From NCBI RefSeq assembly GCF_003334785.1, contig NZ_QOWV01000049.1: a DNA stretch of 4,124 nt. One strand, written 5' to 3'. This document shows, in pieces, positions 2,788 through 3,510 of this stretch. Numbering within the stretch: the first letter of the stretch is position 1; each line of letters starts with the position of its first letter. Made by a program: the position numbers and the translations under genes. The DNA is from Escherichia coli. Lineage in GTDB: Bacteria; Pseudomonadota; Gammaproteobacteria; Enterobacterales; Enterobacteriaceae. The notes beneath the pieces were generated by a model that ran no database searches, had not been told where the DNA came from, and saw only the letters and a program-made list of their open reading frames with translations.

Positions 2788-2816
2788 TTGCCATATACAC
2801 TTGGAGAGATTAAAAT
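2788..2816 (+). promoter_or_regulatory. Candidate sigma70 promoter for the 204-aa gene
   Basis: TTGCCA (2788-2793), 17-bp spacer, TAAAAT (2811-2816); predicted start about 2823, upstream of SD GGAGG (2833-2837) and ATG 2847. Confidence 0.3.
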
Positions 2817-2846
2817 ATCAAAAAGTGTTTATGGAGGTCATATATA

Positions 2847-3461
2847 ATGATTGGAGCATATGCAAACCGTGGCGGCACCCATTCTAAAAAAGAAACATGC
2901 GTGATCGCATTCGCGCTTTTCTACATTATTTTCGCCGTCCCATTACTAATCATTTGGAATACACCTACCAGTTGGGGACTAGCAGTAATCCCAACTGGAT
3001 TCCTACTATACTCCGGATATAAAAATGGAAGAAAGAAAAGAGCAATCGTAAATAATATCCTAGAACAGATAAAGACTGAATATCATGATGCATTCGATCC
3101 AGACCCATCTTACGAACACAAATCAATATCATCATTATATTTCGGAATTGATATCAAAAAAGGTACTGCGTTATATATTCGGCTTTACCCCAATAAAACA
3201 TTAGATGTCATTGGCATTGATATTGATAATTTTACACGGACAGTAGTAAGAGAAAACTGTATGGAAATACACACAAAGTATGTCAATATGCCAATGTTAG
3301 AATTGCCTATTGGTGTTAACTCTGCTCGTTCTATTGCAAACACATTGCACGCAATGGCAAGTCGAGGATATGATTACCCTGTCGACTTTCCTCGCCTGAT
3401 TCAGGAAAAGCGTAAGGAGTGGGAGCAGATTGCAGGTATGCCTGTAGCTGAAGTATTTTAA
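2847..3461 (+). CDS. Hypothetical two-TM membrane protein (204 aa) with a ~145-aa soluble C-terminal domain
   Basis: ATG 2847 with strong SD GGAGG 9 nt upstream; stop TAA 3459-3461. Two N-terminal hydrophobic helices (CVIAFALFYIIFAVPLLIIW and WGLAVIPTGFLLYSGY) followed by a basic patch KNGRKKR and a soluble domain. Followed by a terminator. AT-rich (~37% GC). Confidence 0.75.
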   Translation: MIGAYANRGGTHSKKETCVIAFALFYIIFAVPLLIIWNTPTSWGLAVIPTGFLLYSGYKNGRKKRAIVNNILEQIKTEYHDAFDPDPSYEHKSISSLYFGIDIKKGTALYIRLYPNKTLDVIGIDIDNFTRTVVRENCMEIHTKYVNMPMLELPIGVNSARSIANTLHAMASRGYDYPVDFPRLIQEKRKEWEQIAGMPVAEVF

Positions 3462-3481
3462 GATAAGCAGCCTCCATAACT

Positions 3482-3510
3482 GCCGGTTCAGATGAGCCGG
3501 CTTTTGTTTG
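3482..3510 (+). terminator. Rho-independent terminator after the 204-aa gene
   Basis: Stem GCCGG(TT) 3482-3488 / (AG)CCGGC 3495-3501 (5 GC pairs plus T-A and T-G), loop about 6 nt, followed by CTTTTGTTTG (3502-3510); 21 nt after the stop. Confidence 0.5.

Follow-up and report, generated by a model that had tools for sequence, protein, structure and literature searches.

An intact R621a-type excA entry exclusion gene in a degraded IncI transfer region of Escherichia coli

The DNA analyzed here, called the window throughout, is a stretch of 4,124 nucleotides from an Escherichia coli contig (NZ_QOWV01000049.1, RefSeq assembly GCF_003334785.1). Its subject is a gene lying in AT-rich DNA (36-38% GC) directly after the remains of the conjugation gene traY. 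We assign it to excA, the gene behind entry (surface) exclusion in plasmids of the IncI complex. The features that define the gene and its immediate context are as follows.

1627..2771, plus strand: 3' fragment of traY, DotA/TraY family, codons approximately 343-722 of 722, 5' end lost, matching TIGR04346.
2788..2816, plus strand: promoter-like site TTGCCA-N17-TAAAAT in the 75-bp spacer between traY and excA, agreeing with the consensus at 10 of 12 positions.
2833-2837, plus strand: Shine-Dalgarno site GGAGG, 9 nt 5' of the ATG, invariant in an alignment of four plasmids that includes the R64 type.
2847..3461, plus strand: excA coding sequence, ATG start, 204 amino acids plus stop, read as an R621a/IncI-gamma-type entry (surface) exclusion protein.
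3482..3509, plus strand: intrinsic-terminator-like stem-loop GCCGGTTCAGATGAGCCGGC (3482..3501, eight pairs, six of them G-C) followed by the T-tract TTTTGTTTG.

The encoded protein scored 234 bits (E=1.2e-69, cut-off 100) against the NCBIfam model NF033891, "plasmid IncI1-type surface exclusion protein ExcA". It shares 203 of its 204 residues with WP_000578649.1, the commonest allele (single change V82A), and 202 of 204 with the ExcA of R621a, the reference plasmid for IncI-gamma (WP_000578648.1; changes V82A and P95S); identity to the ExcA of many IncI1 plasmids is likewise 99%. A 615-bp coding sequence of identical extent is named excA by RefSeq in pACN001-F, pUMNF18_IncI1 and R621a, the AlphaFold database entry (AFDB) for the identical protein is named "Surface exclusion protein", and the segment 1627-4047 of the window corresponds, at 99.5% identity, to traY-excA-hha in many IncI plasmids from E. 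coli, Salmonella and other hosts. In precomputed tables PF27689 ('Exclusion-determining_protein') is attached to every homologue; our own Pfam-A scan of ExcA returned no match at all, the scanned library evidently being without PF27689. A sequence search of the PDB with the family profile gave only a meaningless match (E=0.044), and an Rfam search of the whole window gave nothing at gathering scores. The model score, the near-identity to a characterized protein, the location behind traY and the predicted membrane anchor thus all place the protein in the ExcA family, and the gene is far beyond chance. The first-pass annotation of this DNA, made from the letters alone, had recognized no family; the matches to NF033891 (234 bits) and PF27689 and the 99% identity to an experimentally studied protein overturn that statement. 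For the reading as a whole, that 2847..3461 is excA with R621a/IncI-gamma exclusion specificity, we put the joint probability at roughly 0.93. The family is already characterized and named, and as a gene identification the result is nothing new.

The family is small, since a profile search of 1.84 billion representative proteins returned only 86 clusters. Homologues exist down to about 20% identity and are still positioned after a DotA/TraY gene. In three of these distant homologues (about 20% identity) the gene lies between a DotA/TraY gene encoding 711-720 amino acids (TIGR04346, 412-429 bits) and trbA, and traX, the DotA/TraY gene, the excA homologue and trbA still follow one another in that order. 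The same locus in such distant members indicates that the coupling of excA to traY is family-wide. An occurrence mainly in contexts without the upstream membrane protein, which the first-pass annotation had named as evidence against a coupling, is therefore not what the family displays: traY adjoins even the homologues of about 20% identity.

In the window the traY stop codon (2771) is followed by the excA ATG at 2847, and traY itself lacks its 5' end. From position 1629 onward, 378 of 380 residues match residues 343-722 of R621a TraY, and the TIGR04346 match (DotA_TraY, 281.6 bits) covers model positions 322-656 only. Both traY and excA are thus present as the R621a-type allele, and the C-terminal segment that R621a-type ExcA reportedly reads is still present in the traY fragment. 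The longer open reading frame of 409 codons at 1542..2771 was considered as a genuine membrane-protein gene and rejected: its TTG start at 1542 is a chance one, and similarity to TraY sets in only at model position 322. Because the two reading frames are out of phase, the long frame is best described as a traH'::'traY fusion artefact. The earlier proposal, an exclusion factor linked to the membrane protein encoded upstream, was right in kind, in that TraY is the published target of ExcA (PMC12365149, PMC11493245); what ExcA keeps out is a conjugative plasmid that shares its exclusion type, the process being neither phage defence nor toxin immunity.

A promoter, a GGAGG Shine-Dalgarno site and a stem/T-tract terminator had been proposed to frame the gene, and all three lie where they had been placed. 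Promoter-like sites are not enriched in the window (9 found versus 10.8 expected in shuffles), so that the hexamer match at 2788..2816 is weak evidence by itself. In the four-plasmid alignment of excA upstream regions, where pS045-CMY-42 represents the divergent R64 type, TTGC in the -35 element, ATTAAAAT in the -10 element and GGAGG are common to the R621a and R64 types, while the intervening bases diverge. The retention of these elements amid changed bases supports their function, and we regard the pattern as a reasonable footprint of functional upstream signals. Terminator-like sites are enriched (12 found versus 3.1 expected) and the excA terminator stem is kept in all four aligned plasmids; its conservation is little informative because the surrounding backbone stretch is almost identical in all types. 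The description of excA as a self-contained gene, with its own conserved promoter-like and Shine-Dalgarno elements, is a fair one, and these signals matter because the first part of traY and the adjoining upstream transfer genes are deleted here.

The architecture of ExcA was predicted from its sequence and from a confident AlphaFold2 model built on a 52-sequence alignment (mean predicted local distance difference test score, pLDDT, 89.7; predicted template modelling score, pTM, 0.82). The first hydrophobic segment, at about residues 18-36, is strongly hydrophobic (Kyte-Doolittle 2.9), and the second, at about 42-58, is marginal. Both are flanked by lysine/arginine-rich sequence, with three such residues in the N-terminal tail and KNGRKKR after the second segment; by the positive-inside rule, these flanks predict that both ends and the C-terminal domain are in the cytoplasm. 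The model contains a helical hairpin (14-37 and 40-78), seven strands within residues 90-153, a capping helix at 157-173 and two short C-terminal helices. The predicted parts are:

residues ~14-58: membrane hairpin.
residues ~59-89: juxtamembrane helix and linker.
residues ~90-173: PH-like beta-sandwich with capping helix.
residues 181-204: conserved C-terminal helices.

ExcA is accordingly predicted to be an N-in/C-in helical hairpin followed by a cytoplasmic PH/PTB-like domain. The two N-terminal transmembrane helices and cytoplasmic domain of the first-pass annotation agree with the strong first segment and with the hairpin of the model, with the reservation that the second segment is only marginally hydrophobic and that the cytoplasmic side is a prediction. 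The likeness to PH/PTB-like domains, including a bacterial PH domain (PDB 3b77), is one of fold only, seen in a predicted model with 3-16% identity to the structural matches. In the Pfam-A scan ExcA had no sequence match to any PH or bacterial PH model, and a full-text literature search found no paper joining entry exclusion, pleckstrin and conjugative.

Comparison with the other IncI types divides ExcA into segments of very different conservation:

residues 1-89, hairpin and juxtamembrane helix: 0-20% identity to other IncI types.
residues 90-134, PH core: about 60-65% identity.
residues 135-165, PH domain edge: about 35% identity.
residues 166-204, C-terminal helices: 82-97% identity.

One database protein (P0007) departs from this pattern, being a natural chimera that is R64-like over residues 1-89 yet identical to the window ExcA at 30 of 31 positions over 135-165. 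From the segment-wise identities it is likely that the specificity determinants are residues 1-89 and/or 135-165, and the better conserved PH core and C-terminal helices probably carry a common blocking function. At the nucleotide level excA is likewise a mosaic (window 3350-3510), the last ~110 nt and the terminator being almost identical in R621a- and R64-type genes and the remainder strongly diverged. Together with the chimera, this mosaic suggests that recombination shuffles exclusion specificity. An internal ExcB-like product was also considered and rejected: Met74 of the R64/R144 type, from which ExcB would begin, corresponds in the alignment to a CTA codon (Leu54; window 3003-3011, codons 53-55). 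With CTA in place of Met, R621a-type excA is apparently without an equivalent ExcB start.

The remainder of the window belongs to the decayed surroundings of traY and excA:

1-132: end of an insertion-sequence-like element, of which many copies with 100% identity are annotated as 'transposase'.
133-475: 3' end of traF, truncated at 133 by the end of that element.
535-1119: PmrG-like histidine phosphatase gene (NF011945, lipopolysaccharide core heptose(II)-phosphate phosphatase subfamily, PmrG/Ais-like; 295 bits).
from 1514: first 39 codons of traH, an IncI1 lipoprotein gene.
3559-3753: hha/ymoA-family gene, 64 amino acids (NF008191, 94 bits), directly 3' of excA, as in pACN001-F.
~4048-4124: end of an IS3-family, IS1203-like element, 93-96% identical in plasmids.

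A deletion has taken the transfer genes from traH to traX, together with codons 1-342 of traY, out of the window. Only the first 39 codons of traH remain, and they run out of frame into traY at approximately codon 343. The junction lies at 1624-1632 (1627-1632 by blastn), within the interval 1514-1669, with an overlap of only 2-9 bp between its two sides. Relative to R621a about 21 kb are missing, from traH codon 40 through traX into traY, a count that includes the IS2 of R621a. The opposite end of the IncI transfer region is represented, in colinear order, by the DNA upstream of the junction. Insertion sequence ends at 1-132 and ~4048-4124 mean that the IncI remnant is bracketed by such elements on both sides. 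No record of PLSDB or of the complete E. coli genomes spans at least 80% of the window, and the traH'-'traY arrangement is thus absent from these two collections. By its gene content and order, the window is a degraded IncI transfer region in which excA is an intact orphan without a working transfer system.

Several further observations concern these neighbours. The phosphatase gene at 535-1119 encodes a signal-peptide-like N-terminus and, in the IncI transfer region, has traF on one side and traH on the other. Copies of the element whose end occupies 1-132 are found on E. coli chromosomes and plasmids, at up to 22 places per genome. The IS1203-like element, which is also annotated, with an ALIL pseudoknot, in pUMNF18_IncI1, interrupts here a small hypothetical open reading frame 3' of hha. 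Finally, R621a has no match to window positions 3534-3835 and carries there a different small open reading frame on the other strand; IncI plasmids thus have a site for variable cassettes in the spacer that follows excA.

The exclusion factor of IncI plasmids is ExcA, whose target is TraY in the donor cytoplasmic membrane (PMC11493245, PMC8923210). According to Sakuma et al. 2013, as related in PMC12365149, the region of TraY that is recognized is central for R64 ExcA and C-terminal for R621a ExcA. Deletion of the excA homologue of the IncL plasmid pOXA-48 lowered the exclusion index from ~490 to 2, and complementation restored it (PMC12365149). Alleles of traY-excA separate IncI1 from IncI-gamma, with at least six ExcA variants (PMC8004404, PMC7066084). 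In the mechanism described in the literature, a plasmid-carrying cell makes ExcA and anchors it in its own inner membrane. On mating with a related IncI donor, ExcA recognizes donor TraY, a DotA-family protein of the inner membrane that belongs to the type IVB secretion system; productive entry of DNA is blocked, and transfer falls by orders of magnitude. The specificity is allelic, in that an R621a-type ExcA reads the C-terminal variable segment of R621a-type TraY and an R64-type ExcA an internal segment of its own TraY. Since the transfer genes are deleted, excA cannot serve a self-transmissible plasmid here; if it is expressed from its own promoter, IncI plasmids with an R621a-type TraY would still enter its host poorly.

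A more specific idea, which we offer as tentative and on balance doubtful, is that the PH/PTB-like domain binds the C-terminal variable tail of donor TraY in the recipient cytoplasm as a peptide, in the manner of a PTB domain, and that the orphan excA is a standing barrier to IncI-gamma-type plasmids. If TraY-tail capture were true, part of a DotA-family protein would enter or cross the recipient inner membrane during mating.

Several points weigh against the assignment of the gene and the function proposed for it. V82A separates the protein from the commonest allele, and V82A and P95S together separate it from R621a ExcA. Expression of excA from its own promoter is deduced from conservation, the promoter hexamers showing no excess over shuffled sequence. 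That the PH-like domain is cytoplasmic depends on the positive-inside rule and on a weakly hydrophobic second helix, and the literature leaves open how a cytoplasmic domain of the recipient would meet a protein of the donor. Furthermore, the surrounding transfer system is deleted, and excA may be a recent relic that is not under selection.

This last point can be taken as an explanation in its own right, namely that the gene is excA by descent but is silent or irrelevant in a decayed fragment flanked by insertion sequences and is intact only because the deletion is recent. The state of the window is what such a relic would leave, with only 39 codons of traH left and out of frame with the traY remnant from codon ~343, traF truncated at 133, an IS3-family end from ~4048, and an arrangement found in no PLSDB or complete E. 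coli genome record. However, the excA reading frame is full length with one or two substitutions relative to functional alleles, and its promoter-like, Shine-Dalgarno and terminator elements are intact. Retention of excA apart from transfer is moreover seen elsewhere: pS045-CMY-42 retains an annotated excA without an annotated traY (its match to the window traY extends over ~190 bp at 88%), and the transfer-defective pUMNF18_IncI1, in which an IS3-family element adjoins traY, also keeps excA. We therefore consider the relic explanation unlikely, and it is one that bears on the present-day usefulness of excA rather than on its identity. Far less probable still is a role in phage superinfection exclusion or abortive infection, or as an immunity protein against an upstream effector, as the first-pass annotation had suggested. 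A small membrane-anchored protein beside a large membrane protein in AT-rich DNA invites that suggestion, and IncI1 plasmids do alter the phage type of Salmonella (PMC8004404), an effect that the paper does not credit to excA. Yet neither ExcA nor the TraY fragment matched a PADLOC family at E<=0.1, and the neighbours are not toxins, the upstream gene encoding a DotA/TraY membrane component of the type IVB secretion system and the downstream one being hha. In addition, conjugation modules throughout the range of the family link it with traY, and published genetics assign ExcA to plasmid exclusion. A phage-defence or immunity function is thereby already largely refuted, and the assignment to IncI entry exclusion is preferred.

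For annotation, the consequence is that the window is not an island with a new immunity or defence pair, but a degraded IncI transfer region. The use of traY/excA to type IncI plasmids by exclusion is established, and the window allele is among the common ones. The fresh points are the predicted PH/PTB-like fold, which gives a testable idea of how ExcA reads a TraY segment, and the presence of an orphan excA in a transfer-dead remnant; an intact excA that outlives the transfer machinery could affect which resistance plasmids its host acquires.

Among known systems, the closest is R621a (NC_015965.1), whose ExcA is likewise 204 amino acids long and lies in the same place after an R621a-type traY, with the same promoter, Shine-Dalgarno and terminator sequences. 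The window differs from R621a in that its traY is without the first 342 codons and traH to traX are missing, in having hha after excA where R621a is arranged otherwise, and at two ExcA residues. The 220-residue ExcA proteins of R64, ColIb-P9 and R144 belong to the same family (NF033891, PF27689) and share the locus after traY and the predicted layout of a hairpin with a PH-like domain. Their C-terminal 39 residues are ~97% identical to those of the window ExcA (R64 type), whereas the N-terminal ~90 residues are unrelated; identity over the C-terminal 165 residues is 55%, and the TraY segment recognized is an internal one. The R64/R144 type also has Met74, from which the 147-residue ExcB (Q52318) would start and which the window type is without. 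A more distant homologue is the ExcA of the IncL/M plasmids pOXA-48 and pCTX-M3, a proven exclusion factor that is likewise encoded after traY in an I-type (MPF_I) system; its published identity to ColIb-P9 ExcA is only 31% over residues 55-132, and the IncL/M plasmids make up exclusion groups of their own. The TraS/TraG pair of F-like plasmids and the Eex/TraG pair of SXT/R391 elements follow the same logic: the exclusion protein of the recipient and the mating-channel protein of the donor are both inner-membrane proteins encoded next to each other, and the former reads a segment of the latter that differs between alleles. In both pairs the regions that interact are reported to be cytoplasmic (PMC11493245). 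No sequence relationship of TraS or Eex to ExcA was detected, however, and their target is the VirB6-like TraG of F/T-type secretion rather than the DotA-like TraY of the I-type system.
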